Below, piece after piece: positions 9,130-41,371 of a stretch of 64,000 nucleotides of DNA; positions within the stretch are counted from its first letter, which is position 1, and each line of letters starts with the position of its first letter. The notes beneath the pieces were generated by a model. It saw nothing but the letters and a program-made list of their open reading frames with translations, was not told where the DNA came from and did no database searches. The DNA is from Minisyncoccota bacterium. Its GTDB lineage: Bacteria; Patescibacteriota; Minisyncoccia; Phycocordibacterales; UBA9973. The translations under genes were made by a program, and so were the position numbers. The DNA lies in NCBI GenBank assembly GCA_028718635.1, contig JAQULK010000001.1, positions 242,944 through 306,943 of the forward strand, read 5' to 3'.

Positions 9130-9135
9130 ATTTTG

Positions 9136-9532
9136 TGGAGATGGGGGAAATTGAATCCCCGTGCAGAAGGTTATTGTAAAGAAGTCTACATATATAGCGC
9201 GCTTTTTTGTTTAGATTAAAAAATTCTTAAGCGAGCCAAATATTTTTTAATCGAGTTCTTTTGTTTCGAAAAAAAGTCAGAACAGTCTTTTCTCTATCCC
9301 GATAATATTATGCCTCATCTTATATATCGGAAGTCTATAAGAGAGACACCAGCCGAGCTTACGCGAAGGCTGGAGCGAAAGCGAAATCCTTCATACCGAA
9401 GTAAGGAGAAAGTGCAGCTTTTGCTTTAGCAGTCAATTTTGCAATTAACATTTGGACGAATTTTTACGAGATTACGTCCATGCTCGATATGCATCAATAA
9501 CAAATGGCCAACTGTCTATGCCTGGCATCCCC
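9136..9532 (-). ncRNA. ssrA: candidate tmRNA (ssrA), about 397 nt
   Basis: On the minus strand, 5' GGGGATG pairs with 3' CATCTCC to give a 7-bp acceptor stem (one G-U), followed by discriminator A. The T-arm is GGGGA-TTCAATT-TCCCC. An internal ORF GCT AAA GCA AAA GCT GCA ... GCT CCA GCC TTC GCG TAA encodes a tag ending AFAPAFA*. It lies adjacent to smpB. Confidence 0.55.
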
Positions 9533-10152: not shown

Positions 10153-12105
10153 TTGTGCTATTATCATCCTATGGATTTGAATTTTTTCAACAAAAAGGAA
10201 CCAAATAATAAAGGAAAAAAAATTCCACCCAAGAGCAATTTCGGCGGGAATATTGCCGGCGCGATAGTTTTTTTTATGCTCATTACAGCGCTTTATTTAG
10301 TGGTGTCTGGAGACGGGAAAACAACTCCCCAAGTTTCGATTTCTGAATTAGCCAATAGTGTCGTGGCAGGGAATGTCAAAACCATCTTAGTGGAAGGGGA
10401 TAAGCTCACTATCACTTATCAAAATGGCGATGTTAAAGAATCTAAAAAAGAAGTCGGCGCGCCGCTTTCGCAAACACTTTTTGATTATGGGGTAACATCT
10501 GCCGCGATTGCAAAAACAGACATTCAAATAAAAAACGAGAGTGGTTTTATGTTTTGGCTGGTAAATTTGCTGCCGTTTATTTTGCCGATAATTTTTATTT
10601 TAATTTTCTTTTGGTATTTGTCTCGGCAAGTCAAGGGCGCAGGAATGCAGGCTTTTACTTTTGGACAATCCAAAGCTCGTCTCACGAATCCGGATGATAA
10701 AAACAATCGGGTCACCTTTAAAGATGTGGCTGGTTGCAAAGAGGCTAAAGAAGAATTAAAAGAAATAGTAGATTTCTTAAAAAGTCCCAAAAAGTTTTTA
10801 GATATTGGAGCCAGAATTCCCAAAGGAGTCATTTTAACCGGCGCCCCAGGGACTGGCAAGACTTTGCTCGCGCGAGCAGTGGCAGGAGAAGCGAACGTGC
10901 CATTTTTTCATCTTTCTGGAAGTGAGTTTGTGGAAATGTTTGTCGGAGTCGGAGCTTCTAGAGTGCGAGATCTTTTTAAAATGGCCAAAAAAGCGGCGCC
11001 TGCTATTATTTTCGTAGATGAAATAGACGCCATAGGCCGTACTCGCGGAGGAGGATTCGGAGGAGGGAATGACGAACGCGAACAGACCTTAAATCAAATT
11101 TTAGTAGAGATGGATGGTTTTGAGCCGAACGACAAAGTAATAGTGATGGCAGCGACTAATAGGCCAGACGTGCTAGATCCGGCACTCATTCGTCCAGGGC
11201 GTTTTGATCGAAAAGTTATGCTTGATTTGCCTGATCGTACCGATCGCGAAGAGATATTGAAAATTCATGCATTAAAAAAACCGTTAGCTGAAGATATAAA
11301 TTTGAAATTGATTGCTGAACGCACTCCCGGTTTTTCCGGCGCGGATTTGTATTCACTTATGAACGAAGGCGCCATCTTGGCGGCTCGAGAAAATCGCAAG
11401 AAAGTTTTTCAATTTGATTTGATTCGCGCGATTGAAAAAGTGATGCTTGGTCCAGAGCGAAAAAGTCATTTACTTTCCAAAAAAGAAAAAGAAATTACTG
11501 CTTACCATGAAGCCGGGCATGCGATCGTGGCATCGGTGCTTCCGCATGCAGATCCGGTGCACAAAGTTTCTATTATCGCTCGCGGAAATGCCGGGGGATA
11601 TACTTTAAAGTTACCGCTTGAAGAACGACGTTTGCAATCCAAAAAAGAATTTATTGATGACATCGCTATGTCCCTCGGCGGATATGTGGCTGAGCAAATG
11701 ATTTTCGGAGACATCACCACCGGACCGTCGAGTGATTTGCAAGTAGCGACAAATCTAGCGCGAGCGATGGTGACGAGATGGGGGATGTCCGATGTTATCG
11801 GACCGATAGCTTTAGTGGATTCTCCCGGTAGGTCTCAATATGGTGAAATGTCTGCTGAAAAAGAATTTTCTGAAGCCGTTTTCACTAAAGTCGATAGAGA
11901 AGTTTCGAGAATCATAAATGATGGGTTAAAGACTGCGCAAAAAGTGTTGGAAGAAAACAAAAAAGCATTTACCGCCATTGCTTTAAAACTTATAGAAGTG
12001 GAAACTTTAGAACAGGAAGACTACGAGAAAATTTTGGTTGCTCATGGTATTATGTTAAAAAAGAAAGATGTTATAGAAACATCCGTCCTTAGCTCAGTTG
12101 GTTAG
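10153..12105 (+). CDS. ftsH: ATP-dependent zinc metalloprotease FtsH (start possibly at the MDL codon at 10171; the 3' end runs about 23 nt into the tRNA)
   Basis: N-terminal TM segments, AAA module GAPGTGKT...[11 protein letters not shown], and the zinc motif HEAGHA. Confidence 0.9.
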
Positions 12106-12156
12106 AGCACAGAGCTTATACCTCTGGGGTCCTTGGTTCGAATCCAAGAGGACGGA
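12083..12156 (+). tRNA. tRNA-Ile, apparent anticodon TAT (UAU)
   Basis: Manual fold: acceptor CCGTCCT/AGGACGG, D-arm GCTC-AGTTGGTTA-GAGC, anticodon arm CAGAG-CTTATAC-CTCTG, T-arm CTTGG-TTCGAAT-CCAAG, discriminator A. Confidence 0.7.
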
Positions 12157-12220
12157 CACGAAGAGTCTTTTTTAAAAAATCTCTAAAAAGCCAAATGTCA
12201 AGAAGTTTTACATAACATGC

Positions 12221-23247: not shown

Positions 23248-23317
23248 TGTTGAACTTATTTACTCTAGCATATTACTGCTCTTTTTTCATTTTTTTGTTA
23301 TACTCTTCCTAAGTTTA

Positions 23318-23404
23318 GGAGAGATGGGTGAGTGGTTGAAACCAACAGTTTACTAAACTGTCGTCCCTTTAAAAGGACCGAGGGTTCGAATCCCTCTCTC
23401 TCCG
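23318..23404 (+). tRNA. class II (Ser-type architecture) tRNA with an unusual anticodon loop TTACTAA, apparent anticodon ACT
   Basis: Acceptor GGAGAGA/TCTCTCC, 3-bp D-stem GGT/ACC with loop GAGTGGTTGAA (parallel to E. coli tRNA-Ser), anticodon arm ACAGT-TTACTAA-ACTGT, long variable arm GTCC..GGAC, T-arm GAGGG-TTCGAAT-CCCTC, G73. Confidence 0.6.
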
Positions 23405-23492
23405 CAGTCAGTATTTAGTATCGGAAGACTCTGATGCTCGACACTTTCTTTAGTGTGATAACTATTGGTTTTTAATATATACTTTACTCAGT

Positions 23493-26400
23493 ATGAAGAA
23501 AGTATCACTAACCGAAAAGCTGCAAAAAAGAATTTGGAGGGACGCTAAAGATGCAGCTGGTCCTCGCTATACCAGCGATATAAATGTTGAATTGGAAATA
23601 AAAGATGTATTCGATGGTATTGGTAGGACTGAGAAGATTTTTGAGGAAATTGAAGAATTTAGAAAAAAAATAAGAAGTGCATATAAATCAATCAGTCACC
23701 TAAAAACTTCAGAATATAAAGACGACGTTATAAAAAAGAATCTCAAAAAAATTCAAGCTCTTGGAAAATTTTTCCTAGTAACCACCGAAAAATTTGGCAA
23801 GGACCAGTCTAGAATGATTGATTTAAAATCAATCATTCTAGCAACAAAAAAAATTTCTCCCTATTTTTCTCCTATTGAAAGGAGTATATGGGATTTTGAG
23901 AGAAAGGAGGATGATGAACAAAGGGAAAAAGCAAAGACTGAGAACCGACAGTACTTTGGACATAGCCAGTCGGACGAATTAAGAAAACTTAAAAGCCTTG
24001 AGCATAATCTCAGAGAATTTAGTAGAGGTATTCGAGAAATAGATTATTTTGCAAAAAGTCACAAGGCACAACTTTTAAATAATCCTTTTTTGCTCATCCT
24101 TGGTCAGGCAGGAATGGGGAAAACACATTTGGTATGTGATATAACTAAAAACCGCCTTGAAAATGAACTTCCGCCAACTGTGATTGTTTTAGGTGAAAAA
24201 CTTCTAGACATTCAAGATTCTCTTGGTGCCATATTCAGCGCCGTCTCAATAAAAGGATCTAAGAAAAAGATTTTAAATGAACTTAATGAAAGAGGTAAAA
24301 AAGCAAATCGAAGGGCTTTAATAATTGTTGACGCAATAAATGAAGCTGACAGACGAGGTTGGAAATCGGGAGTGTATAAACTTATTCACGAGGTAAAGAA
24401 TTATCATTGGGTTGGGTTAGTGATGACATGCAGAGTACCCTTCCAGTTTCTATACCTTCCAAAAAAGTTAAAAATAATAACGGAATATCATCAAGGTTTT
24501 CAAGACAACGAGTTAGAGGCCATGACTGCATTCTTTAATTTTTACGGTTTATCTTTACCTCAAGTGCCACTTCTTATATCCGAGTTTAGTAGCCCACTAT
24601 TCCTTAGTTGTTTTTGTAGAACGGCGAGAGATATTAAAGGTGGGAAAGCAAAGGTAGTAAAAGGGATTAATGACCTTGCTTTGGGTCAAGTGGGAATGAC
24701 TAAAATCTTGGAAGATTTCTATATCTCGAAAGAAGAATGGATAGTAAAGAAACACACATCAAAATTCAAAATTCTTATAAAGCAATCTTGGATTTGGCAT
24801 AAATCTGGAGATTGTCTTATAAAGAATATCGCCAAGGTAATGGCAATTAACGGACAACAGTATCTCAAAGAAAACGAAGTGCTTCAGGTTATTAAAGACC
24901 TATCTAATAATAAGTATTCATTCATAACATGCTCAAAAGTTTTAAAAATTTTAATAGAAGAAGGAGTACTAATTCGAGATGCAGCTTGGGATGATCAAAC
25001 AAAAAAATATTTTGACGTATTCAAATTCTCTTTTCATAAATTTAGTGACCATATAATTGCAAGATATCTCTTGGGGGGATTTTTTGACAGCAAAAAGATA
25101 ACAGCTAGTCTCCATGCTTCAAATTCTCTTGGTAACCTTTTTTCTTCAGAAGAAAGTATATTAAGAAACATAGGATTGATTGAAGCTCTGATGGTTGAAT
25201 TTCCAGAAAGAATAAAGAAAAATCCAAAATTAACAGAAAGTGACTTAATTGATTACATACCAGAAACACTCAAGGCTGATTCTCAAATCATGTCAGCTTT
25301 TATCGAAAGCTTATATTGGAGGAAGCCTGAGAATTTCCTAAACACTAAAGGACTAATCAAAAAGTCTATAGTTGATTATATAAATAAAACGCTTCTACGT
25401 TACGAAAACTCTTCTCGGGAATTTTTAAACCTATTTGTTGCAACAGCCACAAAACCATTCCATCCCTTTAACTCAAAAATGCTCAACAAATATTTATTGA
25501 AATTCTCGCTTACTGATAGAGATTTAATCTGGTCTGAATATGTAAGAAAACAATATGGTTCAGGCAGTATATATAAACTAATTTCTTGGATTGAAAATCA
25601 AACTCTTGAAAAAATTACGGCTGACCAAGCTGCTTCTGTAATTACAGTATTATCATGGGCGTTGGGAACAAACGTTAAATTACTGAGAAATAGAGCTACA
25701 CGGTGTTTGTATATTGTTGGCAAGATTCATCCGGAGGAATTTTTTAAATCTCTTCAAGAAATTATACACATAAACGACCCTTATATCCGAGAACGAATTC
25801 TATCCGTAGGGTATGGAATTGCAATGGCGATTGAGGACCTAGATAAAAAGCTAATTTCAAAAGTCTTATTTCCTAATGCTAAAACTATTTATGCTCTTTT
25901 TTTTAAAAAAGGAGCTAAGTTGGGTTCAACAAATGTTCTCATCAGAGACTATGTTCGAGGTATTATTGAGGTAGCGTTATATCATAATGAGAAATTACTT
26001 TCACCTGCTCAAATAAGACGTGTTAGACCACCCTATACTGACGGTGGCACCCGCAAATGGGGTCGCAACCTAGACAAGGATGAAGGCAAATATCGAGATG
26101 GTAATTCACCTTTAGGGTGGGAGTTTGAAAAAGACACTTTAAGACACCTTGTTGGTAGTCAAGCTTATGATGATAAGGACAAGAATTACATTCGTCTAAA
26201 AGAAAACATGATGTGGCGACTTTATCAGCTTGGCTATTCTCTTGAAAAATTTGGCGAAATTGATAAAGAAATTGTTCGTAATACAAGATACGATGGACCT
26301 CAAAACTATGCTGGAAAAATAGAAAGATATGGAGAAAAATATTCTCTTATCGCATATCATGAAATGCTAGGTATTAAGCTAGATAAAAAGAAGTTGGACC

Positions 26401-27392
26401 GTTGGTGGTACACAGAAGATGGGAGAAACAGTGAGTTTGAAGTAGATGCTAGTTTTCCACAAACACCGAAACGAAATAAATTATTTTCAAAAGATCTGAC
26501 CTCTGGTCCAACAGATATTAAGAAATGGATGGTTCAGAAAAATCCTCCTGATATTTCCAATTATTTAGAAATTGATAAGATTGATGGCCTTCCAGGCCCT
26601 TGGATTTTAGTTGATGGAATTATTGGGGAGAAAAATACAAATAAAAGTCGAAAAGTCACAACTTTTATTTATGGTATTCTTGTAAATGAGGTAAATGAGA
26701 AAAAAATCGAGGAATTCATGGCAAAGACTCCATTTCCAGGAAATGATAATATCCCTTCTCTACCTGAAACCAGAGAAGTTTTTGCAGGAGAGCTTGGATG
26801 GAGAGAGAAAAATACACCAGATCCAAATTTATATATCAAAATTAAACGAGGAGAAATACAAAAAAAACTTACGGAAAAAGAAAAAAGGTTCCATTCTATC
26901 CGATTCGCTTTCTTTGGAGAAAAGGAAGTTGTCCAAAAGAAACAATCACTACCAGAATTTAAAACAGAAACTATATATGAAGAGATACCAATACAGCGTC
27001 TTGCAAGATGGTTTGTATCAAAGGATTACACCTACATTAAAGATAACGATACAACCGGACTACATTTATTGAGTAAGAAAATAGTAAAAAAATATAAACT
27101 GCATTGTGCTCCAGCATCATTCAATATCTTGAACGCCAAGAGAGAAGTTGTTGCTATTCCTGTTTCTGTAGGAAATCAATATGGCACACATGAGAACCTA
27201 CTCTATGCAAGAAAAGATTTAGTTGATCTTATATTAAAAGAGAGCGGTAAAAAGATGCTTATTGTCACTTGGGGCGAAAGACAATATTGGCCAGAAAATT
27301 TAGATGACATACACCGAACTGACCATAGAAGCATAATTGAAAAACGTGAGAATATATACAAACAAAACTACAGCTATCCTTTTAAAAAGTAA
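23493..27392 (+). CDS. giant (1299 aa) P-loop NTPase, STAND/AAA-like (Avs/NACHT-like architecture), a candidate defense protein
   Basis: Walker A LILGQAGMGKTHL and Walker B RALIIVDAINEAD at about aa 195-290, with an N-terminal domain of about 190 aa and a C-terminal helical region of about 900 aa. Confidence 0.5.
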   Translation: MKKVSLTEKLQKRIWRDAKDAAGPRYTSDINVELEIKDVFDGIGRTEKIFEEIEEFRKKIRSAYKSISHLKTSEYKDDVIKKNLKKIQALGKFFLVTTEKFGKDQSRMIDLKSIILATKKISPYFSPIERSIWDFERKEDDEQREKAKTENRQYFGHSQSDELRKLKSLEHNLREFSRGIREIDYFAKSHKAQLLNNPFLLILGQAGMGKTHLVCDITKNRLENELPPTVIVLGEKLLDIQDSLGAIFSAVSIKGSKKKILNELNERGKKANRRALIIVDAINEADRRGWKSGVYKLIHEVKNYHWVGLVMTCRVPFQFLYLPKKLKIITEYHQGFQDNELEAMTAFFNFYGLSLPQVPLLISEFSSPLFLSCFCRTARDIKGGKAKVVKGINDLALGQVGMTKILEDFYISKEEWIVKKHTSKFKILIKQSWIWHKSGDCLIKNIAKVMAINGQQYLKENEVLQVIKDLSNNKYSFITCSKVLKILIEEGVLIRDAAWDDQTKKYFDVFKFSFHKFSDHIIARYLLGGFFDSKKITASLHASNSLGNLFSSEESILRNIGLIEALMVEFPERIKKNPKLTESDLIDYIPETLKADSQIMSAFIESLYWRKPENFLNTKGLIKKSIVDYINKTLLRYENSSREFLNLFVATATKPFHPFNSKMLNKYLLKFSLTDRDLIWSEYVRKQYGSGSIYKLISWIENQTLEKITADQAASVITVLSWALGTNVKLLRNRATRCLYIVGKIHPEEFFKSLQEIIHINDPYIRERILSVGYGIAMAIEDLDKKLISKVLFPNAKTIYALFFKKGAKLGSTNVLIRDYVRGIIEVALYHNEKLLSPAQIRRVRPPYTDGGTRKWGRNLDKDEGKYRDGNSPLGWEFEKDTLRHLVGSQAYDDKDKNYIRLKENMMWRLYQLGYSLEKFGEIDKEIVRNTRYDGPQNYAGKIERYGEKYSLIAYHEMLGIKLDKKKLDRWWYTEDGRNSEFEVDASFPQTPKRNKLFSKDLTSGPTDIKKWMVQKNPPDISNYLEIDKIDGLPGPWILVDGIIGEKNTNKSRKVTTFIYGILVNEVNEKKIEEFMAKTPFPGNDNIPSLPETREVFAGELGWREKNTPDPNLYIKIKRGEIQKKLTEKEKRFHSIRFAFFGEKEVVQKKQSLPEFKTETIYEEIPIQRLARWFVSKDYTYIKDNDTTGLHLLSKKIVKKYKLHCAPASFNILNAKREVVAIPVSVGNQYGTHENLLYARKDLVDLILKESGKKMLIVTWGERQYWPENLDDIHRTDHRSIIEKRENIYKQNYSYPFKK

Positions 27393-27397
27393 AAAAA

Positions 27398-28717
27398 TTA
27401 ATCAATCAAAGTAAGAACTTTTACAGTAATTTTTATTTTAGACTTAAAACATCCCATCAGCTCTCGCTTTTCTTGATTGGTGCCTTCTTTAAAAATATAC
27501 TTGGCATAAGTTCTTAAATCTATGTCTTCGTGCTTAGTCTTTGAATTTTGGACTCCCAATACTCCTTTTTGAAATCTATTATGCCGCTTCAATTCATCCT
27601 CAAATTTATGTTGTATCCCAATTTTATTCAGATCCACCTTATCTAGACTAATAAGGAGTTGATCAATTAATTCTTCTTCCCTCATATATGGGTTCTTGCA
27701 ATGTCGATCCCTTGATCTTCCGCATCCATAGTAAATATACTTAGCTACCGTTCCATCTTTTAGTTGTTTGTATTTCTCTTCAGCTGATATTCCAGAGCCA
27801 CATAGTCCGCAGGTCATTAATTTTGTAAAGGCAAACTCATGACTTTGTCGTATAATATTGTCTCTTTTTAATTGTGCCTGCACTTGTTCAAATAATTCTT
27901 TAGTGACTATTGGTTCATGTTTGCCTGCGTACCAATTACCTGATTTTTTTGGATACTCAAATGTTCCATAATAGAATGGGTTCATCAAAGTTCGGTAAAT
28001 ATTTCCAAGTGCTAGGTTTTTATTTCCTATTGTCTTGAAATTTAATTCAAACTTAAGCCACTGATGTACCTTTCTGCCGGACCATTTATCGTATGCAACT
28101 TTTTCGTACATTTTCTTTATGATATGCCCACGATCAGGATCAATAATTACCTGACACTTTTTATCCATAAGTTTTTGATTAAGATATCCAGTTGGTGCCA
28201 CTCCAGGCCATAACCCCATCTCTACTCTTGTTCTCAACCCTCGCTTCACATTAATTCCTCGATTATCATTTTCAAGTTTTGCTTGTCCACATAAAATCAT
28301 CAACATGAATTTGTCGTTTGGCGAGTTCATGAACCGTTGACCAAATGTTCGGATGTCTTGCAATAAATTCGCATCCATTAAGTCTACAATTTTCCCAAGA
28401 TCGCCCGCGTTACGACTGATGCGGTCAGGAGCCCACGTCAAAATTCCATTGAATTTTCCTTGCTTTAGTTCTTCAATAATTTCGTTAAAGACTGGTCGTT
28501 GTCCGGTTTCTTTTGCACTATGTGATTCTCTTTTCATTGTAATAACCTCTAATCCCTCACGATCTGCGAGTTGTAACATCTCCTTAATTTGGCTGTCTAT
28601 GCTCAAAACCTGCCGTTCTTCAGACTCAGTGCTTTTTCTTGCATAAAGGCAGTATTTTACCTTTATGGGAGTTGCTTGTTTGACCGTCACTCCAGTCGGC
28701 ATTTGCATCGTATTCAT
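27398..28717 (-). CDS. large serine recombinase (resolvase/invertase-type catalytic domain plus recombinase and zinc-ribbon domains)
   Basis: YARKSTESEERQVLSIDSQ (catalytic Ser region), a resolvase fold, and a C-terminal CGLCGS...YYGC zinc ribbon. Confidence 0.8.
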   Translation of the reverse strand: MNTMQMPTGVTVKQATPIKVKYCLYARKSTESEERQVLSIDSQIKEMLQLADREGLEVITMKRESHSAKETGQRPVFNEIIEELKQGKFNGILTWAPDRISRNAGDLGKIVDLMDANLLQDIRTFGQRFMNSPNDKFMLMILCGQAKLENDNRGINVKRGLRTRVEMGLWPGVAPTGYLNQKLMDKKCQVIIDPDRGHIIKKMYEKVAYDKWSGRKVHQWLKFELNFKTIGNKNLALGNIYRTLMNPFYYGTFEYPKKSGNWYAGKHEPIVTKELFEQVQAQLKRDNIIRQSHEFAFTKLMTCGLCGSGISAEEKYKQLKDGTVAKYIYYGCGRSRDRHCKNPYMREEELIDQLLISLDKVDLNKIGIQHKFEDELKRHNRFQKGVLGVQNSKTKHEDIDLRTYAKYIFKEGTNQEKRELMGCFKSKIKITVKVLTLID

Positions 28718-28834
28718 ATATACCTAATGAATGACGCAAAGCCCTGTAGGAGTCCAGAGCGTCTCGGTTGGTACTGTTGGTAACTTTAAAGCTTTAGAAT
28801 CATTAAAAATAATGTTAAAATGAATTAACTATTT

Positions 28835-30142
28835 ATGGAGAACTTTAACGATAAATTTTTACTTTCTTTTGAAAAAGAATTTAATATCAATTATCCAAAA
28901 ATTAACTCTGCAACATATAAGAGTCTTGTTAATTATGCTTCTGATTTAGATTTACCAATACAAAGCTGGTATCGCTACAAGGAAGGATACTCGATTAAGC
29001 TAGTTGATCAAGTTCTTACTAAGTACAATGTAAAACAAGGCGACCTAATAGTCGACCCTTTTTGTGGTAGTGGAAGTACTCTTTTACAAGCCAAAATAAA
29101 TAGATGTAACAGCATTGGTTTTGAGATAAATCCTTTTTCTGCATTTTTAGCAAAAGTAAAGACTCAAGATTATAAAAAACAAGATATTTTAATATTTAAT
29201 GAAAATGTAATTGAACTTAAAAAAGTGACAAGTAAACAGAACGTTGATATTCCAAAACTTTCAACAATTGAACAACTTTTTGAAAAAAAAGCACTATTTT
29301 ATCTTTTAACTTTAAAAGATAAAATTAATAAAATAAAAAATAAAAAAGTTTCTAATTTACTGATGCTCGCTTGGTTGGGTATTCTTGAAGAAGCATCAAA
29401 TTATAAAAAAGCTGGTAATGGTTTAAAGTTCCGTAAAACTATTAAAAAAACACTTCGAGATCAGGAGTATGTAAGAAAAATATTCTTTAAGGCAATCGAT
29501 AATATAAAAAATGATTTAGATTTTGCGGTTAAGATATCTAACAAGGTAGATACAGAGGTCATTGAAGACTCTTGTTTTAATTTAAATAAATACACAAAAA
29601 AAAATTCTATAAAAGGTGTTATTTTTTCACCCCCTTATGCTAATTGTTTTGACTATACAGAAATATATAAAGTAGAACTTTGGATGGGTTCTTTTGTAAA
29701 AGAATACTCTGATTTAAAAGTTTTACGAAAGAAAGGTATTAGATCTCATTTAAATGGATATGAAATAGAATCTAAGCTTGCAGTAAAAAGCGTTCCAGAG
29801 TTAGGAGCATTAGTGAAGGAACTTTCTTTAAAAAAACTTTGGGATAAAAGAATTCCAAAGATGATAGAAGCATACTTTAATGATATGTTTCGTTCAATGG
29901 CTGAAATATATAAAGGATTAAAAAAGAATGGGTTTTGTGTAATTATTGTTAGTAATTCTGCATATGGAGGAATAGTTATCCCAACTGATCTATTATTAGC
30001 AAAATTCGCTAAGCATTTAGGTTTTAAGGTTTCTTCAATTGATGTTGCTCGTAACATTATTACTAGTTCACAACAATACAAAGAAACCGAAAAATACCGT
30101 GGTTACTTAAGAGAAAGTATCATTTACTTGGAAAAAAAATAG
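28835..30142 (+). CDS. DNA methyltransferase (alpha-class N6-A/N4-C), motif I DPFCGSGST, motif IV SPPY
   Basis: LIVDPFCGSGSTLLQA at about aa 70 and VIFSPPYANCFDY at about aa 265. Confidence 0.7.
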   Translation: MENFNDKFLLSFEKEFNINYPKINSATYKSLVNYASDLDLPIQSWYRYKEGYSIKLVDQVLTKYNVKQGDLIVDPFCGSGSTLLQAKINRCNSIGFEINPFSAFLAKVKTQDYKKQDILIFNENVIELKKVTSKQNVDIPKLSTIEQLFEKKALFYLLTLKDKINKIKNKKVSNLLMLAWLGILEEASNYKKAGNGLKFRKTIKKTLRDQEYVRKIFFKAIDNIKNDLDFAVKISNKVDTEVIEDSCFNLNKYTKKNSIKGVIFSPPYANCFDYTEIYKVELWMGSFVKEYSDLKVLRKKGIRSHLNGYEIESKLAVKSVPELGALVKELSLKKLWDKRIPKMIEAYFNDMFRSMAEIYKGLKKNGFCVIIVSNSAYGGIVIPTDLLLAKFAKHLGFKVSSIDVARNIITSSQQYKETEKYRGYLRESIIYLEKK

Positions 30143-30144
30143 AA

Positions 30145-31440
30145 ATGGAAAAAGATGAAAAAGAGAAAATTATAGAAGTAACTAATATCCCAGCAAAACC
30201 AAAAGACGGGGATGTTTTTTTAATAAAAGCATTTGGTATTTCAAGTTTTACTCATGGCATTTTTAAGTACCCATGTAAATTCATACCACATATCCCACGT
30301 TGGTTTATAGAAAATTATGCTTCAACTGATACAAAAAAATATGGTGTAATAGATCCATTTATGGGTTCAGGAACAACTCTCGTAGAAGCTTCTTTGTTAG
30401 GTTATCCTAGTTATGGTATTGATATTGATCCATTAAGTAAATTATTGAGTAATGTTAAAACCACACCATTTTATGATAGAGAATTTTCTATTATTGATCA
30501 ATTTATCTCTGATTATAAAATAACAATAAAAAAGCCTGATCAATTAAAAAATAAGATTGAGGAGTTTGTTCCTGATAGGGATTTAATTAATTACTGGTTT
30601 TCTGAGTCTACAATTAAAGATCTCGCACTTATTCGTTTTCTAATTCAAAAAAACTTTACTCAATTTAAGAATAAAAAGGTAAAAAACTTTCTTGAAATTG
30701 TATTGGCTTCTATAATACGAAAAGTTTCTAAGGCGGATAATCAATCACCTAAACCGTATATTTCAACTAAAATAAAAAAAGATCACGTTATTGTGTTTGA
30801 TGAATTTTATAAAAACCTAATTAAGTATATAGATTCAATTAAGCAGTTTTCAGATGAATCAAAAGCAGAGGTAAAAATAATTGGATTTGACGCAAGAAGT
30901 GTTGATAAAAAATCTCTCTATTTTAATAAGGTTAGTTTAGCAATGACATCACCACCTTATATAAATGCCTTCGATTATGTTCGTTCCTTAAAGCTAGAAA
31001 ACTTTTGGCTTGATGGTTTTAGTAAACAAAAGTTAGATGAACTTTATGATCATCAGATTGGCTCAGAAAAAGTAAAAACTTTAAAAGAAGTTCCTGCATA
31101 TGGAATTAAAGAACTTGATTCTGTATTGGCTCAAATATATTTATTAGACAAAAAAAGAGCATGGATTACTTTTAAGTATTTTCAGGCAATGACAGAAAAT
31201 CTAAAATCTATACATGATTCTCTTCAAAAAGGAGGATATTATTGCATAGTTGTAGGAAACAGTAAAATAAGAGGATTTGATGTTGATACAGCTAGTATTT
31301 TGTTAAAAATAGCAAAAGATGTAGGATATAAAAAGAAGCTTGTCTTTTCTTATATAATAAGAAATAGATACCTTCGTATCCCAAGATCTGGTCGAGGTGG
31401 ATTTATCCCTAAAGACTATGTATTAGTTTTTGAAAAATAA
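30145..31440 (+). CDS. second DNA methyltransferase (alpha-class), motif I DPFMGSGTT, motif IV SPPY
   Basis: IDPFMGSGTTLVEA and AMTSPPYINAFDY. It starts 3 nt after the first methyltransferase gene. Confidence 0.7.
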   Translation: MEKDEKEKIIEVTNIPAKPKDGDVFLIKAFGISSFTHGIFKYPCKFIPHIPRWFIENYASTDTKKYGVIDPFMGSGTTLVEASLLGYPSYGIDIDPLSKLLSNVKTTPFYDREFSIIDQFISDYKITIKKPDQLKNKIEEFVPDRDLINYWFSESTIKDLALIRFLIQKNFTQFKNKKVKNFLEIVLASIIRKVSKADNQSPKPYISTKIKKDHVIVFDEFYKNLIKYIDSIKQFSDESKAEVKIIGFDARSVDKKSLYFNKVSLAMTSPPYINAFDYVRSLKLENFWLDGFSKQKLDELYDHQIGSEKVKTLKEVPAYGIKELDSVLAQIYLLDKKRAWITFKYFQAMTENLKSIHDSLQKGGYYCIVVGNSKIRGFDVDTASILLKIAKDVGYKKKLVFSYIIRNRYLRIPRSGRGGFIPKDYVLVFEK

Positions 31441-33145
31441 TTTTATGACACGAACAAGGAGTTTAGAAATTTGGCATATACCAAAGAGACAAAATATCCA
31501 TCAAATTATTGGTTCTGTAGAAATCTTATCTCAAGATAGTTTTAATGGAAAATCTTGGACTTCAATGAAACAAGAAGCTTTTAATACTCTTCTTGGGAAA
31601 CATGGCTTAACTAAAAGAGGTAGACCTTTATCTCCATCAGCAAGAAGAACATTAGAGGCCCTAATTAAATATTTAGGTTTTATTGTTATCGATAATTCCA
31701 CAACACCTTCAACAATACATGTAACAAATGCAGGTTTTGAGCTAATAAAAAAACACGGTTCCGTTTTGGGTTTAGGAAAAAATTTAACTATTGTTTCTGG
31801 TAATGGAAAAGAAATTTTGGAATCTAAGGTTGTGGAACACCAAATGAATAAGTTGCAAATTACGAATCCTGTAATAAAGGAGGATTGTGTAAATATTCTT
31901 CTTTTCCCATTTCGTGTTACCTTAAAACTTTTATTAGAACTCGAATCCCTTTCGAAGGAAGAATTAGGATACATTGTTTTCTCAATGAAAAAGGAAGATG
32001 AGTATAAATTAATTATTGAAAAAATTAAAACTTTTAGACAACTACCAGAGAAACGAAGAAAAGCAGAAATTGATGCTTTTAAAAATACTGAGGTTGGTAA
32101 TCTTACTTTAGTACAAGCACCTACCGCAGGTTACTATATTGGTCTTTGTGTTGCTACAGGTTTATGTGAAAGAAAATCTAGTGATTTATGTATAAAAGTA
32201 GATAAAAAAGAAGAAATACTTTTAATCCTTGAAAAATACAAAAATATTAGACCATTTGATTTTGGAGATAATTTAAGACTTTGGATTGAATATTTTGGTG
32301 ATTTCAAAAGAATACGGCCACCATTACTTGTTAATGTTCACATTAACTTACCTGAAAAATGCTATGTTCGTGTTTATAACCACGAAAATAAAGAAACTTC
32401 TTCTGGTGTTGTTTCGGGTTCTTTATCCTTTGGCGCCGCTCTTTTTGAAAATGAAGAGTATAAATTTGATTTTTTTAGTTTTAGTGATGCAACACTTTTT
32501 TACTCTGAAAAGAAAAAAATTAAATCAGATACTATTAAATTTTTACTCCCCACGGTGAAAAAAGCTATACAAGGAGATGATACACAAGAAATATTAGAGA
32601 AGAAAATTTTAGAGCTTATAGCTAGTAAAGATTATGATTCTTTATATGGTCATCATATATCTATAGTTAGTTCAATTACCGGTAAGAATAATTTTAATAC
32701 TGCCCAACTTAGGGGTGGCCGACTAGAATATTTATTTTTTAAATTACTTCAAAAGTATAAAGACTTAGGTAAAATCGATGATGTTATATGGAATGGTCGG
32801 GTTGATGAATTTGGAATTATGTATCCAGCATTGGGTGGTAAAGAAGGATATCCGGATGTATATTTTTTTATAAAACAAAATGTTTATGTTCTAGAACTTA
32901 CAACAATAAGGGCTAATGCAATGCAGTGGTCTGCGGAAGGAGGTTCCGTGCACGATCACATAATGAACCTTCAAAAGAAAATCGGTACTCAGTATTTTAC
33001 TCATGGTATTTTTTCTGCACCAACTATTGCACCAAGAATTGAGGGAATGTATAAACACATCGCTACAAAAGAAGATACTCCTCATCACACAATACCAATT
33101 GAAGCATTGATAAAGGAACTTAAAAAGTTGCCGAATATTTTTTAA
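31430..33145 (+). CDS. hypothetical 571-aa protein, a candidate restriction endonuclease partner of the two methyltransferases
   Basis: It overlaps the second methyltransferase gene by 11 nt (operon). The C-terminal GYPDVYFF...VLELTTIR is weakly PD-ExK-like. No firm motif. Confidence 0.3.
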   Translation: MKNNFMTRTRSLEIWHIPKRQNIHQIIGSVEILSQDSFNGKSWTSMKQEAFNTLLGKHGLTKRGRPLSPSARRTLEALIKYLGFIVIDNSTTPSTIHVTNAGFELIKKHGSVLGLGKNLTIVSGNGKEILESKVVEHQMNKLQITNPVIKEDCVNILLFPFRVTLKLLLELESLSKEELGYIVFSMKKEDEYKLIIEKIKTFRQLPEKRRKAEIDAFKNTEVGNLTLVQAPTAGYYIGLCVATGLCERKSSDLCIKVDKKEEILLILEKYKNIRPFDFGDNLRLWIEYFGDFKRIRPPLLVNVHINLPEKCYVRVYNHENKETSSGVVSGSLSFGAALFENEEYKFDFFSFSDATLFYSEKKKIKSDTIKFLLPTVKKAIQGDDTQEILEKKILELIASKDYDSLYGHHISIVSSITGKNNFNTAQLRGGRLEYLFFKLLQKYKDLGKIDDVIWNGRVDEFGIMYPALGGKEGYPDVYFFIKQNVYVLELTTIRANAMQWSAEGGSVHDHIMNLQKKIGTQYFTHGIFSAPTIAPRIEGMYKHIATKEDTPHHTIPIEALIKELKKLPNIF

Positions 33146-33403
33146 GTCTTAAAAACAAAATGCCAAAAACAAAAAAACTTAAAAAACCGACTCCCTCAGA
33201 AATACAAAAAAGAAAAACAATTGAGTTAGGTGCTGAACGACTCGCTGAGATTTTTATATCACAAATTGACGAACAACACCTATCAAAAAATAAGGACTCG
33301 TCAGATTCAGCTGTTGGTAACTAAACTACACAAATCCTATGATCTAAGCTAGGATGGCAAGACCTCTAAAAAAGAGGTATAATCTCATTACAAATTAATA
33401 AAG

Positions 33404-33585
33404 TTGACCTAACCCCTAAAATCTTTAGGATATGGTCTTATGAAAACTCGCTACAAGATAAAGAACCCTTCGTCAGGGTACTTGTAGCGAGTCATAATCG
33501 GAAACGGTTATGGGTGGTCGAAAGACCATCGCCCGGCGGAGGGCTTTTTGTCTCTCTAGGCAACTAATAAAACTCGCTACAAAAA
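33404..33585 (+). promoter_or_regulatory. promoter-like site (-35 TTGACC, -10 TAGGAT) plus a structured leader with three copies of AACTCGCTACAAG (two direct, one inverted) and a terminator-like GCCCGGCGGAGGGC-T5
   Basis: Repeats at 33442-33455, 33481-33494 (inverted) and 33572-33585 (abutting the ATG at 33586). A GGTGGTC-GAAA-GACCATC tetraloop hairpin sits at 33513-33530. Confidence 0.4.
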
Positions 33586-34242
33586 ATGAAAACACAACAG
33601 AGTGTAATTCAAGATTTATTTCTTGAATATGGGCTACTCAATTCGGATCTCACAATCAACGAATTAAAAATTAAACCAATCTTGGCAAAATTAAAGAAGG
33701 GTCTAAAACAGTATTTAAGTATTCAGCGAAGCGTTAATATTACGGATACAAGCAAAGATATCTTGTTCCAAGAAATGTTTAGTAATTTTTATGGTTTTGA
33801 TCGAAATAGAGATAGCGCTTGGAAAAAAGAATATTTTAATTTGTTTGAAACATTAAAAATAAAAGACAGAGATTTCAAGAAAACACTTGAAGGAGTGTAT
33901 ACAAAAACAAATAAAATAGAGCCGTCATTTTCCAGTAAGCTTTTAGCAACTCTTAATCCTGATTTACCTGTAATAGATAAGTGGATACTAAAAAATCTTT
34001 CTCTTGAAAAGGAATCTCAAAAAATAAGCAGACTGAAAGATGTATCAGAGCGACTTAATGAAACTGAAAATTTGTACAAAAAATTGTCAGAAATGTTTGA
34101 AGAATTTATAACCACAAAAGGTGCAGATAATTTATTTGATCGCTTTGTTTCTGAATATCCTTTCACTAATACAACACAAAATTCCAGCCTAACGAAAGCT
34201 AAGATGCTTGATCTCATACTTTGGCAATTACGAAGGAAATAA
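33586..34242 (+). CDS. hypothetical protein
   Basis: 218-aa ORF with no motif. Confidence 0.3.
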   Translation: MKTQQSVIQDLFLEYGLLNSDLTINELKIKPILAKLKKGLKQYLSIQRSVNITDTSKDILFQEMFSNFYGFDRNRDSAWKKEYFNLFETLKIKDRDFKKTLEGVYTKTNKIEPSFSSKLLATLNPDLPVIDKWILKNLSLEKESQKISRLKDVSERLNETENLYKKLSEMFEEFITTKGADNLFDRFVSEYPFTNTTQNSSLTKAKMLDLILWQLRRK

Positions 34243-34246
34243 TACC

Positions 34247-34768
34247 TTATTCCCAACTTTCTCTGGGTCTTTTGTTTCTTTCCCTTGCATTTTTTAAAAT
34301 ACTTTTCATAAGTGCATCTTTTTCTTTTTTTGCTTTTGGATTTGACAATCTTGTGACCTCTGCCTTTATTCTTTGTTTCATTTCTTGTTCTTTATTTTCT
34401 TTTTCGACAGCTACACGAATGCAAAGTTCACAGACTTCTGATTCATCATTGTGTTGATGTACGAAAAGTGGAGGAGGATCAATATTCCGCTTTGGAGCAT
34501 ATTTTGGATTATTGTTAATTAGATGAAATTTGATTGCTGGAAAGTATCCTTCCTTTAGTTTCTTTGCCAACCCCATTTCTGCAATTTCATCTATTTGAGA
34601 CACTCCTGCTTTCATGGCAACATTCACTTCTCGTCTGAATTCAGGACTATCCTTCATCCATCGGTAAATTGTAGCCCTCGAAATACCCGTCTTTTTGGAG
34701 GCGAACGAGATCCATGGAGATTCACGAAGAATCTCCAAAAACTTTGATTTTTCATAATTATGTTTCAT
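34247..34768 (-). CDS. HTH-containing small protein (phage terminase-small-subunit/Psq-like HTH)
   Basis: ISFASKKTGISRATIYRWMKD HTH. It lies directly downstream of the ParB-methyltransferase gene. Confidence 0.4.
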   Translation of the reverse strand: MKHNYEKSKFLEILRESPWISFASKKTGISRATIYRWMKDSPEFRREVNVAMKAGVSQIDEIAEMGLAKKLKEGYFPAIKFHLINNNPKYAPKRNIDPPPLFVHQHNDESEVCELCIRVAVEKENKEQEMKQRIKAEVTRLSNPKAKKEKDALMKSILKNARERNKRPRESWE

Positions 34769-36094
34769 TTAAGATAATTTAATCCTTCTTTTACCAGTGA
34801 ACTTCTCCCAGCGATTAATAATAACTTCTGTGTAGACTGGAGACTTCTCCATGACAAAACATCTACGTTTTAGCTTTATTGATGCAATTAACGTCGAACC
34901 TGATCCGCCAAATGGCTCAAGCACTAATTGATCCCTAGTCGTTAGAACTTTGATATATGGAATTAAGATTTCTAACGGTTTGGTTCCAAAGATAATGCCT
35001 TGTCCTGATGATTTTTCGTCAGCGGCAAGATGTTCAATATGATCTGTGGGACAATATTTTTTACCTTTACCATAGCTTTCCCATTGAGGACTGCCTGAGA
35101 TAGCAAACAGAGCCGTATTATATTCATTCTCCAGTAATTCTTCCTCGATTTCAGTCTGCAAGCCCTCATGCTGTTCGCTAGTTGCCACCATCGCAATATC
35201 GTACTTCGAGAAAAATTTATGCTTACCCGCATATCCTTGGTTTCTGTTAGCAAGATGCCACACGAGCATATTTTTAACTTTCCAATACTTTTCCATTTCA
35301 TTCCAAATGGTCCTGATATTTTTCCAGTTCTCATAACAAATAATGGAAAAATCTTCTGCTTGTACTTTATGCACATTCGCCATCCATAATTCAGTAAAAT
35401 TATCAGGCAAGACATCAGTTTCAAGATATCGTCTATTTTTCTTTGCGCCAAATCCTTCAGTCGCTTTCCCTTGGCGGCTTTTTCCATGGAGATAATCTAA
35501 AATATATGGCGGATCAGTCATAACCATATCTATTTTATCTTCACCACAGAGCTTTAACATATCTGCTTCTACCGTACTATCGCCACACATAACTTTTGAA
35601 CCATCTAAGTCATACACATCTCCTTTTTCAACAGTTATCTTTTCGATATTTAATTTTTCTAGCTCTTTGTTTAGGTCGAATTGTTCTTCCACTTTGTCTT
35701 CTTCAAAGATGCTGTCTATGTCCTCAGAAGTAAAACCGACATCTGCGAGGAATGCTTCGTCGAACTTAGCTAAAAGATTAAAGTCAAACTCTCCAGTATT
35801 TTTGTTAAGCCTGATATTTAGTTCTTTTTCTTTTTCGATATCAGGAATATTAATGTAGACAACTGGCACTTCTTCAATACCAAGTTCCTTGATCACAGAC
35901 AATCTAAAGTGACCTCCGATAACAACATTTTTTCTTTCTTCGGCAGAATTCACAAGTAGTGGATCTACTATACCGAATTTTTTAATACTTTCTTTTAACT
36001 GACTCTCTGCTTCTTTATCCCATTTTCTAGGATTATATTCTGCAATCTTGAGTTCGCTTACAACCACATGCACTATTTTTATTTTTTCTGGCAT
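34769..36094 (-). CDS. ParB-like nuclease domain fused to an N6-adenine/N4-cytosine DNA methyltransferase (DPPY)
   Basis: The N-terminal ParB/Srx-like region VHVVVSELKIAEYNPRKWD...GIVDPLLVN and MVMTDPPYILDY are common in phage/plasmid methyltransferases. Confidence 0.7.
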   Translation of the reverse strand: MPEKIKIVHVVVSELKIAEYNPRKWDKEAESQLKESIKKFGIVDPLLVNSAEERKNVVIGGHFRLSVIKELGIEEVPVVYINIPDIEKEKELNIRLNKNTGEFDFNLLAKFDEAFLADVGFTSEDIDSIFEEDKVEEQFDLNKELEKLNIEKITVEKGDVYDLDGSKVMCGDSTVEADMLKLCGEDKIDMVMTDPPYILDYLHGKSRQGKATEGFGAKKNRRYLETDVLPDNFTELWMANVHKVQAEDFSIICYENWKNIRTIWNEMEKYWKVKNMLVWHLANRNQGYAGKHKFFSKYDIAMVATSEQHEGLQTEIEEELLENEYNTALFAISGSPQWESYGKGKKYCPTDHIEHLAADEKSSGQGIIFGTKPLEILIPYIKVLTTRDQLVLEPFGGSGSTLIASIKLKRRCFVMEKSPVYTEVIINRWEKFTGKRRIKLS

Positions 36095-36128
36095 ATTTTT
36101 TTTAAGTTAAATTTAATAATGAGACAAC

Positions 36129-36160
36129 AAAAAAACAGCTTGGTAGCTGCCTTTTCTTTT
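36129..36160. terminator. bidirectional terminator-like hairpin (A-run, CAGCT-TGGT-AGCTG, T-run)
   Basis: Read from the sequence in a 440-bp divergent intergenic region. Confidence 0.35.
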
Positions 36161-36535
36161 CAATAAAATATTAAATTTATTGATGAAGAATTGGCAACTT
36201 TTTGAAACACTAAACAGATTGTTTAGTCACAAGATTGCCAACTCCACACCAATTCCCTAATTTACGACTTCGGCCATTCGTTTACCTGAATGATAAGGTT
36301 ATGCATTTAAATCGACCATTAAAACATAAGATACTTTTTGCCTCTTTAGCTTTGTAAAAAAGAGAATAAATATTTGTTGGGACAATGCACAACTCTTACT
36401 CTTTAAAGATAAAGAAAAGATTATTGCACATTGGTCTGCGTTATAAACTCAAAGAACTATTTTTAGTATATCAAGCGTAAATAGCTAGGCAAGGAAAAAA
36501 GTGGAAAACTTTTATAAATTTTCTATAATAAATAC

Positions 36536-37795
36536 ATGGAAAAGCATCTTAAAGACAAGCAATATTATATTGACCTTTACGACCGCCACACCGTTAAACG
36601 CTGTCGAGACCTCGTACGCACTCATTCAGAACCAATAAAAAATCCTCCACTGATTGAGGGCAAAAAACCAACACAGAAAATGGTTGATGCCATTTCAAAA
36701 ATGGCTCTTGAGTGGAGTATGATGTTTCAAACAGGCGAAAGATATTTGAACAAAGAAGAGACAATCCGAAAATGGATGGATGCTGATAAAAGAAAAGACG
36801 AATTGTATGAAACAGCACAAGCACCAGAAAATATACGCTGTCTAACCTGTCGAAATCTTCTAAAACCAACATTTAAAAATCTATGGTCTGAAAATGGTAA
36901 AGAAGACAGAATGTTTTTTATGTATGATTGTCCAAATCAATGTTTACCAAGAAGAGCATTTTTCTCAGACGGCGAAGAATGGAGACCTAAGCCAAACCCT
37001 TGCCCAAACTGCAAAGCAAAACTCGATTGTAAAGATGCAAGTACTAAAGAAAAATTTATTACTGAATACACCTGCATAAATTCAGAATGCGGATATGTTA
37101 AAAAAAGTGAAATAGAAAGAAACGCAATAAAAGAAGAAGAGTTTGATGAGAAATTTACCGAAGATAGAGATCGTTTTTGTTTAACTGAGGAAGCAGGTAA
37201 AAAATGGCAAGAAGAAAAATGGCGACTAGAACAGCTTGGTAAATTTATGGATGAATGGAAAGAGGAAGAAAAACAAAGAGCAGAAAAATTAAAGGCAAAT
37301 CCGAAAGGATTTCATCTTGAAGGTGCTGGTTATCGCTGTGCTATATGCGGTGATGGCACTCCCGAAGGTGATAATTGGTATGACGAATATGGCATAAAAT
37401 GTTTGATCTGTCAGAAAGCAATCGATGAAGGAGAAATACCTGCATCTGTTGCAAAAGACAAAGATAGTTGGTATTCAAAATACGATATTGAAAGCAGGTT
37501 CGGTGTCAAAGGTCCAACGTTTTATAAGTGGGTAAGGAAAGGGATTATTAAACCAAGAATTATTACTCGTTACGGTAAGGGCGAACATTGTCATATTTTT
37601 ATGGTTAAAGACAATAAAGATATCTTGCCACCCAAGAAGCTGACTGAATCACAAATGGGTAGAGAGACAAAAGATGGAAAAGAATTAAATTCAATGCATC
37701 CTTGGTATCATTTTACTCATTTAGTTGAAGAGGTGAAAAAGTATAAGATTATGGATTATATTAAACTTGTTCCTATGGAAGAAAATAAAAAATAG
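36536..37795 (+). CDS. hypothetical protein with multiple CxxC zinc-ribbon pairs
   Basis: CLTCRN, CPNQC, CPNCKAKLDC, CINSECGY, CAICGD, CLICQK. Confidence 0.35.
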   Translation: MEKHLKDKQYYIDLYDRHTVKRCRDLVRTHSEPIKNPPLIEGKKPTQKMVDAISKMALEWSMMFQTGERYLNKEETIRKWMDADKRKDELYETAQAPENIRCLTCRNLLKPTFKNLWSENGKEDRMFFMYDCPNQCLPRRAFFSDGEEWRPKPNPCPNCKAKLDCKDASTKEKFITEYTCINSECGYVKKSEIERNAIKEEEFDEKFTEDRDRFCLTEEAGKKWQEEKWRLEQLGKFMDEWKEEEKQRAEKLKANPKGFHLEGAGYRCAICGDGTPEGDNWYDEYGIKCLICQKAIDEGEIPASVAKDKDSWYSKYDIESRFGVKGPTFYKWVRKGIIKPRIITRYGKGEHCHIFMVKDNKDILPPKKLTESQMGRETKDGKELNSMHPWYHFTHLVEEVKKYKIMDYIKLVPMEENKK

Positions 37796-37802
37796 ATGTA
37801 CG

Positions 37803-38195
37803 TTATTTTTCCCATTCCTTAACATCAGGATGAAAATCTACTTGATATTCTGGGATACCTAAGGAAATACCATACTCCTTTGCCTTATTATATTCTTCAA
37901 TACTATTTCTATTTATATAAAATACTTTATCTCTGAAAATAATATAGTGATGCGTTTTGTTTCTAAAATCAGCATACCAATTATGCTCTTTATCTAAAGA
38001 TACACTAATCTCTTTAGCTATGGCTTCAGCTTCATTTTCTGGAATTAAAACAGTGTGCAACGTCCATTGTTTAACCCAAGGAGTTTTATGTTTTTCTGCA
38101 ACAACACTGACTTTGGTTTCCAAAATCTGAACTTTCTTAAGCACTTCTTTGTTTTCTAAACTTTCTTCAATTATTACTCCACGATAATTATCCAT
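37803..38195 (-). CDS. hypothetical protein
   Basis: 130-aa ORF. Confidence 0.3.
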   Translation of the reverse strand: MDNYRGVIIEESLENKEVLKKVQILETKVSVVAEKHKTPWVKQWTLHTVLIPENEAEAIAKEISVSLDKEHNWYADFRNKTHHYIIFRDKVFYINRNSIEEYNKAKEYGISLGIPEYQVDFHPDVKEWEK

Positions 38196-38199
38196 AATT

Positions 38200-39643: not shown

Positions 39644-39648
39644 GGATA

Positions 39649-40956: not shown

Positions 40957-41371
40957 GCCCTGATTGTATCAAAAATTCAAAAAAAGAGACATCTAACGGA
41001 TATCGCATAAAAGTGTCTCATTTGTCTCATTTTGACGTAAAATAAGGTTATATTGTCGTTTAAAAGACACACTCCTGTTTTTCTTTTAGCGACTCGAGTG
41101 CCTCAGCAACACCCGGAAAAAAGTGCTAGAATACCTTTACATGGTCTCATTAGCACAGTACTTAACTCTTAGACACCGCAGTCAGTATTTATTATCGGTA
41201 GACGTTGAGGCCTTATTTTCCCGCACTTTTTTGCGCTGATTTTTCTAAAAAACCATGACCCATCCGGGATTCGAAATAGGAAGTAAATTAACTATATTTT
41301 AAATATACAATGTAAAAATGTATTCAGAACTAAAAAAATAAAAAAATTATTTATGTTATACTGCAATAGTA

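Follow-up and report, generated by a model that had tools for sequence, protein, structure and literature searches.

What does a serine tRNA with the anticodon ACU do in a bacterium, and why has it been kept? The near-total absence from prokaryotes of anticodons that begin with A, other than the ACG of tRNA-Arg, is a long-standing puzzle and the subject of current work (PMC11066159; bioRxiv 10.64898/2026.05.15.725136), and a class II tRNA gene in the DNA analyzed here appears to break the rule. The gene lies in a 64,000-nucleotide stretch, referred to below as the window, which is a CPR chromosome segment of 36% GC and Paceibacteria-like character. An earlier reading of the letters, the original prediction, had offered three ways to understand it: a pseudo-tRNA kept as an integration target, a suppressor or recoding tRNA, or unusual decoding. 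Here we follow the gene through its structure, its orthologues, its flanks and the codons it could read (Table 1).

Table 1. Positions of the features discussed, in window coordinates unless a locus or a tRNA position is named
Feature	Position	Strand	Basis or detail
tRNA-Ser(ACU), class II	23318..23405	+	ARAGORN; Rfam RF00005, 59 bits; orthologues with invariant loop and four compensatory pairs
Extended -10 element TGTTATACT (TGnTATACT)	23297..23305	+	Sequence reading, cross-lineage alignment
Shared divergent promoter/spacer between the two Ser tRNA genes	23248..23317	.	Core conserved across five lineages
tRNA-Ser(GCU), loop UUGCUAA	23158..23247	-	ARAGORN; Rfam, 44.3 bits; orthologues aligned
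Left direct-repeat copy, native tRNA 3' trailer, attachment site	23402..23437	+	Repeat search and alignment
Right direct-repeat copy, far island end	41176..41211	+	Repeat search and alignment
Large serine recombinase of the island	27398..28717	-	Pfam Resolvase, Recombinase and Zn_ribbon_recom
Orthologue locus L021			JGI Ga0172379_10089015
Orthologue locus L024/L025			JGI and ENA
Orthologue locus L034			JGI Ga0376277
Orthologue locus L035			ENA
Orthologue locus L022/L023			ENA and Logan
L022 compensatory change, acceptor stem	tRNA 4-69		G4-C69 to C-G
L022 compensatory change, D stem	tRNA 10-25		G10-C25 to U-A
L022 compensatory change, anticodon stem	tRNA 27-43		A27-U43 to G-C
L022 compensatory change, T stem	tRNA 50-64		A50-U64 to U-A
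tRNA-Arg(GCG), not ACG, in a relative	L027 607-679		
tRNA-Arg(GCG), not ACG, in a relative	L028 8100-8172		
tRNA-Arg(GCG), not ACG, in a relative (L030/L031)	L030 7935-8009		
tRNA-Arg(GCG), not ACG, in a relative (L032/L033)	L032 8079-8151		

A serine tRNA with anticodon ACU

ARAGORN calls the gene as tRNA-Ser(act) with its anticodon at position 35, and the Rfam tRNA covariance model matches it over its full length (23318-23404; gathering score 29, E 3.3e-10). The Rfam model sets a 7-nt anticodon loop of UUACUAA and, with it, the anticodon ACU, which occupies 23352-23354; the discriminator G73 is at 23404. Neither the tRNA finder nor the covariance model gives an alternative placement, so the apparent anticodon of the original prediction holds, and a sequencing error in the loop is excluded by the agreement of six independent assemblies.

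The sequence itself reads as an acceptor stem of 7 bp (GGAGAGA/TCTCTCC), a D stem of 3 bp (GGT/ACC) closing an 11-nt D loop, an anticodon stem of 5 bp (ACAGT/ACTGT) and a T arm of GAGGG-TTCGAAT-CCCTC with a 5-bp stem. The variable region, 18 nt long with its own 4-bp stem (GTCC/GGAC), is invariant across the six sequences compared, and the window copy encodes no CCA. At minimum free energy the single sequence folds into the cloverleaf (-31.7 kcal/mol, z -2.7); two further pairs, U32-A38 and U33-A37, form in silico, as they would for the neighboring GCU tRNA loop UUGCUAA. The Ser-like body that had been proposed, with G73, a short D stem and an 11-nt D loop, is thereby borne out by ARAGORN, Rfam and direct reading alike. 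The gene has what a bacterial class II tRNA-Ser has, namely a cloverleaf, a long variable arm, G73, 7/5 acceptor and T stems and an anticodon for a serine codon (ACU:AGU); Leu and Tyr tRNAs carry A73. Allo-tRNAs, the Ser-identity tRNAs with an 8/4 or 9/3 structure, were considered as a match and rejected on the canonical 7/5 stems, which also set the gene apart from tRNA-Sec.

The ACU loop equals that of the GCU isoacceptor with G34 changed to A. This identity fits an origin in which a second AGY-reading Ser tRNA gene would have undergone an old G34A change. The body is only 52-55/88 identical to the local GCU tRNA and to the UGA Ser tRNAs of relatives, and no recent donor can be named from that comparison.

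The gene is conserved with its promoter and partner

A tRNA-Ser(GCU) gene, transcribed divergently, lies 70 nt upstream of the ACU gene and co-occurs with it in every case; its own orthologues show compensatory T-stem changes (GGCGG/CCGCC versus GACGG/CCGTC). The conserved core of the spacer between the two genes reads ACTTAnTTACTCTAGCATATTACT...TTTTTCATTTTT, and on its reverse strand the motif TGCTAGAGT, also present in L026, a relative discussed below, precedes the GCU tRNA. On the ACU side, 12 nt separate the 3' end of the extended -10 element from the tRNA 5' end, or 13 nt in L035. Its TG and TATACT are kept, with a variable n (T/G/A/C), in the window, L021, L024, L034 and L035, of which L035 reads TAAACT. 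A consensus promoter scanner did not call this element because there is no -35 match.

Orthologues came from a metagenome scan for the tRNA and from look-ups of close homologues of the adjoining 6-phosphogluconate dehydrogenase (6PGD); the clade sampled is a narrow one, with 6PGD identity of at least 83%. The same tRNA-Ser(ACU) occurs at the same locus in five further independent metagenome assemblies, six with the window, and in every ACU-bearing locus it adjoins the 6PGD gene and is paired with tRNA-Ser(GCU). The loop TTACTAA is invariant in all six lineages. Identity to the window tRNA is 84-86/87 in L021, L024, L034 and L035 and 75/87 in L022, while four-fold degenerate sites in the orthologous flanking genes are only 50-52% identical to the window in the first four and 40% in L022; synonymous sites of the neighboring genes are thus nearly saturated. 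At 12 of 87 positions L022 differs from the window, and eight of these 12 form four compensatory double changes, all of them in this one lineage. Across the alignment of six sequences 99.3% of cells are paired and four pairs have changed on both sides, a level of covariation that none of 500 shuffles reaches and that is 0 in slid controls.

Judged from this comparison, tRNA-Ser(ACU) is a genuine chromosomal gene under clear purifying selection in a small clade of the ultra-small Patescibacteria (CPR). Sequencing error, pseudogene decay and neutral drift are excluded as accounts of it, because sequence conservation, base-pair compensation and promoter have been maintained while four-fold sites approached saturation. 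The gene can nevertheless be lost or moved: in L026 (GCA_043809405.1, 84% 6PGD identity) the locus has the GCU gene alone, so the ACU gene is dispensable or relocated in that lineage.

Single loci show peculiarities of their own. The L035 copy (2280-2367) has a G1.G72 mismatch (TCTCTCG versus TCTCTCC), which is either an assembly error or a real mismatch. In L034 a degenerate 37-nt duplicate of the leader and the 5' part of the tRNA (GGAAAGATGGATGAGTACTTGAATCAAG..., 1755-1791) sits between the promoter and the intact gene. L022 (10945-12180), the most diverged relative, has the Ser tRNA pair in inverted orientation with respect to 6PGD, with a 348-aa LAGLIDADG-type ORF between the two genes. 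The 3' end of this ORF runs into the start of the GCU tRNA, whose body differs strongly: it matches the window ACU tRNA at 55/86 positions and has the T loop TTCGACT.

A D-arm pattern scan of genome contigs gave 17 loci from unrelated phyla, which were GGA, CGA and UGA tRNA-Ser genes and two tRNA-Cys genes, with no orthologue among them. The metagenome scan, which used GGTTGAAACC and the anticodon stem, recovered L021 as its one orthologue, because the other lineages have GGCTTAAACC in place of GGTTGAAACC; its remaining hits, L019 and L020, are unrelated tRNA clusters. Two scans of viral contigs found no phage-borne copy. An exact look-up of the window 6PGD protein matched only a 4.2-kb Logan contig that ends inside the GCU tRNA. 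At more distant 6PGD homologues (P0010, P0012, P0013, P0014, P0018 and P0022) the synteny is G6PD-6PGD-cyclase and the tRNA pair is absent, which makes these loci uninformative about ACU; they are the source of the tRNA-Arg(GCG) genes listed in Table 1. One tRNA in L019 (207-292, Ga0116180_1000181) is class-II-shaped, with a long variable arm, the anticodon GCA and apparently U73, and shares its D arm and anticodon stem with the window tRNA. It has a normal tRNA-Cys(GCA) as its neighbor in a densely packed, phage-like cluster of tRNAs and resembles a Ser-like body with a Cys anticodon and discriminator.

Genomic setting and the island at the 3' flank

The flanking genes are chromosomal and include those for ribonucleotide reductase, RecG, 6PGD, FtsH, IF3 and type IV pilus ATPases. 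The closest named 6PGD homologues belong to the Patescibacteria group, Candidatus Paceibacterota and Candidatus Nomurabacteria. Elsewhere in the window a tRNA-Ile(UAU) gene (12083-12157, +), conserved in L026 (2386-2459), overlaps the 3' end of the ftsH ORF (10153-12105) with its first 23 nt. This tRNA is rare in bacteria, in which AUA is normally read by CAU with lysidine; AUA is common in the window (449 in 16.5k codons). A tmRNA gene (9133-9532, -; Rfam 124 bits) has a long insertion relative to the model in its tag-coding region. For two large ORFs, 621-3389 (+; 922 aa) and 49022-50251 (-; 409 aa), Pfam gave nothing at E<=1e-5; orthologues of the latter in L022 and L024 are 81-82% identical to it.

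The original prediction had also set the tRNA directly against the direct repeat of an island, and repeat search and alignment agree with it. The two copies of a 36-nt direct repeat, 86% identical and the left one beginning at the last tRNA bases, bound an island of 17.8 kb (23405-41175). In addition to its large serine recombinase, the island holds a 1299-aa ORF (23493-27392) with no Pfam match and a P-loop-like GQAGMGKT, three ORFs with N6/N4 DNA methyltransferase domains (in one case as a fusion with a ParB N-terminal domain), an AlwI-like endonuclease and NUDIX, inositol-monophosphatase and hydrolase genes at the right end. A full-length LOOT RNA (Rfam RF03000, 80 bits) also lies in the island, at 33406-33530 (+), shortly ahead of the ORF 33586-34242, for which Pfam gives no match.

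The left repeat copy belongs to the tRNA as its native 3' trailer: part of it, the motif ATTTAGTATCGGA, also follows the tRNA in L024/L025, where the downstream genes are different. Directly after the tRNA, L034 has the orthologue of window ORF 48547-49032, an arrangement that makes all of 23405-48540 variable DNA in the window lineage. The locus resembles the tRNA-gene integration sites of other genomic islands, with a recombinase-bearing island and a direct repeat that starts at the tRNA 3' end; unlike typical sites, it has a repeat essentially confined to the 3' trailer and a recombinase of the large serine type. Serine recombinases do not usually integrate with such a long direct repeat. 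The 3' flank of the tRNA is an insertion hot spot in every lineage, and the island only uses this flank, leaving the anticodon unexplained.

AGN codons keep their standard meaning

Codon-versus-codon tallies over 49 orthologue pairs, window against related loci, give the meaning of the AGN box. At 208 aligned window AGA sites the partner codon is AGA in 93 cases, AGG in 27, CGN in 32, AAA or AAG in 41 and a serine codon in one, which amounts to arginine at 152 sites and arginine or lysine at 193. The 46 aligned AGG sites face arginine 31 times, lysine ten times and serine once. AGT and AGC exchange mainly with each other, and in an alignment of 120 6PGD members AGA sites hold R/K and AGY sites hold S. 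Long ORFs contain no in-frame stops under table 11, and the ACU anticodon is complementary to no stop codon. As far as orthologous codons tell, AGA and AGG are arginine and AGU and AGC are serine, which is the standard code, without reassignment or suppression.

AGA is the commonest arginine codon in the window (258 in 16.5k codons), and AGU makes up about 61% of AGY codons. A codon-usage comparison of ACU-bearing loci with relatives that have no visible ACU gene revealed no enrichment of AGU. We therefore infer a selective benefit of the ACU gene from conservation alone, without a codon-usage signature of adaptation.

Position 34 and a proposed decoding role

It had been expected that A34 would normally be deaminated, giving ICU, an expectation that probably does not hold in this lineage. 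Four related Paceibacteria lineages carry tRNA-Arg(GCG) instead of the usual bacterial tRNA-Arg(ACG), a choice that suggests the absence of an I34 system. Shulgina and Eddy state that tRNA-Arg(ACG) appears to be lacking in CPR, with GCG used instead, and some deep-branching bacteria do not use inosine (PMC8629427). No deaminase domain turned up in the 39 window ORFs scanned, out of about 52 of at least 150 aa. The loop, U32 U33 A34 C35 U36 A37 A38, shares U33-A34-C35 and A37-A38 with the TadA substrate tRNA-Arg(ACG) and differs from it only at positions 32 and 36, which are C and G in the substrate. In E. coli, an orthogonal tRNA with the anticodon ACU kept an unmodified A34 and read AGU at 9.4% reassignment; its reading of AGC and AGA was below detection, and that of AGG was 0.36% (PMC11066159). 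Overexpression of Ser-tRNA(ACU) in E. coli was harmless and even improved growth parameters (bioRxiv 10.64898/2026.05.15.725136). In some contexts unmodified A34 can read other bases, as in Mycoplasma tRNA-Thr(AGU) and E. coli tRNA-Gly(ACC) (PMC11066159).

Our best explanation, to which we assign a probability of roughly 60%, is a selectively maintained Ser-tRNA(ACU) whose A34 would stay unmodified and which would read AGU beside tRNA-Ser(GCU), with the code unchanged. SerRS does not read the anticodon, and because of this, together with the long variable arm, G73 and the pairs G1-C72, G2-C71 and A3-U70, it would be expected to charge the tRNA with serine. In a CPR lineage without the tRNA-Arg(ACG)/TadA inosine system, as the relatives and a published study suggest (PMC8629427), A34 would remain adenosine and form a Watson-Crick pair with U3 of AGU, the commoner AGY codon; U36-A37 would suit t6A37. 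The GCU tRNA would cover AGC and, by wobble, AGU, and the ACU tRNA would supplement it as an elongator. With no A34-to-inosine conversion, the abundant arginine codon AGA would not be misread, and the absence of A-to-I editing would remove the usual penalty on an ANN anticodon in a split box. That A34 stays unmodified and reads AGU only is probable, and it fits the biology of the clade because ICU pairing with A would be harmful given the abundance of AGA, and because the GCU tRNA, needed for AGC, is always kept.

Comparison with other A34 and I34 tRNAs

Sporadic predicted split-box tRNA(ANN) genes in bacteria have been listed in a GtRNAdb survey (Raval et al. 2026, bioRxiv 10.64898/2026.05.15.725136). 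They share with the gene described here an A34 in a two-fold box, a GNN isoacceptor that is always present and an AT-rich genome, but they are scattered over single species with no evidence of retention, whereas here the gene is orthologous and syntenic in six or more diverged lineages, shows covariation, keeps its promoter element and belongs to a phylum reported to be without the inosine system. Few CPR genomes are in GtRNAdb. Engineered ACU tRNAs in E. coli have the same anticodon, and they remained A34, were AGU-specific and were tolerated or beneficial on overexpression (Schmitt et al. 2024, PMC11066159; Raval et al. 2026); they are, however, artificial, built on an M. jannaschii Tyr body or on mutated E. 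coli genes in a host that contains TadA, whereas the present tRNA is natural and conserved.

Natural unmodified A34 is known from Mycoplasma capricolum tRNA-Thr(AGU) and yeast mitochondrial tRNA-Arg(ACG), both in reduced genomes without I34 formation (PMC11066159). Those tRNAs serve four-fold family boxes, in which reading several bases is harmless or useful; ACU, unlike them, belongs to the split AGN box, in which a tRNA that also read AGA or AGG would insert serine for arginine. Beyond Arg, I34 is known from Lactobacillales, in tRNA-Leu(AAG). The likeness of tRNA-Arg(ACG) with TadA and of Leu(AAG) to our case is the encoded A34, and for Arg also the shared loop residues given above; in contrast to tRNA-Ser(ACU), they are deaminated to inosine and replace the GNN isoacceptor, which is kept here, and position 36 in the present tRNA is U rather than G.

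Alternative explanations

Deamination by a TadA-like enzyme would yield a Ser-tRNA(ICU) that reads AGU and AGC and, weakly, AGA. The loop resemblance to tRNA-Arg(ACG) would allow it, and a split-box ANN tRNA sequenced in E. coli did become I34 (Raval et al. 2026, bioRxiv 10.64898/2026.05.15.725136), yet the relatives use tRNA-Arg(GCG) and CPR are reported to be without tRNA-Arg(ACG) (PMC8629427), ICU would mistranslate an AGA that is clearly arginine, the GCU tRNA would be needless if ICU read AGC well, and the ACU anticodon escaped deamination in E. coli (PMC11066159); we consider this alternative unlikely. Far less credible is that AGA, AGG or both are read as serine, as in some mitochondria, or that the tRNA is a suppressor. 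An A34 or I34 form of the anticodon could in principle reach AGA or AGG, and changes of arginine codons are known in low-GC bacteria, including CPR Absconditabacteria (PMC8629427), but the window tallies, with a single serine among the AGA sites and arginine or lysine opposite 41 of 46 AGG codons, the 6PGD alignment, with only R/K at AGA sites, and the long ORFs without in-frame stops leave next to no room for it, and the suppressor or recoding role offered at the outset has no support.

Two alternatives remain. The tRNA could be serylated and serve mainly a non-ribosomal or regulatory role, as a cell-envelope aminoacyl donor or a sensor, with the odd anticodon barring normal decoding: charging by a SerRS that ignores the anticodon is compatible with any anticodon, decoding would be redundant with GCU, L026 does without the gene at this locus and codon usage has not shifted. 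Yet an anticodon loop that stays invariant while neutral sites saturate speaks for a function that depends on the anticodon, ordinary elongator Ser tRNAs (for example GGA/GCU, other phyla) have this T stem GAGGG/CCCTC and T loop as well, and no locus has a linked dedicated transferase gene, all of which makes such a role improbable. A decaying or neutral pseudo-tRNA, a spare copy with a G34A mutation kept solely as a place where mobile elements attach, would suit the hot spot, the downstream DNA that is different in every lineage, the serine-recombinase island bounded by the 3'-trailer repeat and the missing gene in L026. It would not account for 84-86/87 identity where four-fold sites are at about 50%, for four compensatory pairs, a conserved promoter and a perfect cloverleaf, or for a repeat that spans only the last 3-4 nt of the tRNA; integration leaves the conservation of body and loop unexplained. 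The gene is full length, its stems are intact and it has not drifted neutrally, so the notion of an attachment remnant is largely refuted and we judge it very improbable. Of the options first raised, unusual decoding is the one that survives, unlike the pseudo-tRNA, the suppressor or recoding tRNA and the sequencing error.

Implications for A34 in split codon boxes

A literature search retrieved no description of a conserved bacterial tRNA-Ser(ACU) and nothing specific on the status of TadA in CPR; an A34 tRNA that serves a split codon box and is conserved across a clade appears to be undescribed. Tentatively, and with somewhat more doubt than confidence, we suggest that this may be the first clade-conserved natural tRNA with unmodified A34 in a split box (AGN: Ser/Arg), tolerated and selected on account of a loss of the TadA/inosine system in Patescibacteria.

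If that is true, A-to-I editing, and not A34 as such, would be what excludes ANN anticodons from two-codon boxes in other bacteria, and tRNA-Ser(ACU) would be a natural AGU-only decoder with which to test this exclusion. The locus offers a natural case of a long-kept split-box ANN tRNA in a phylum reported to be without inosine formation, and it makes testable the hypothesis that ANN anticodons are barred from split boxes because inosine formation leads to the misreading of NNA codons. For annotation pipelines, it means that a tRNA-Ser(ACU) in a CPR genome should be neither dropped as a pseudogene nor taken for an alternative code.
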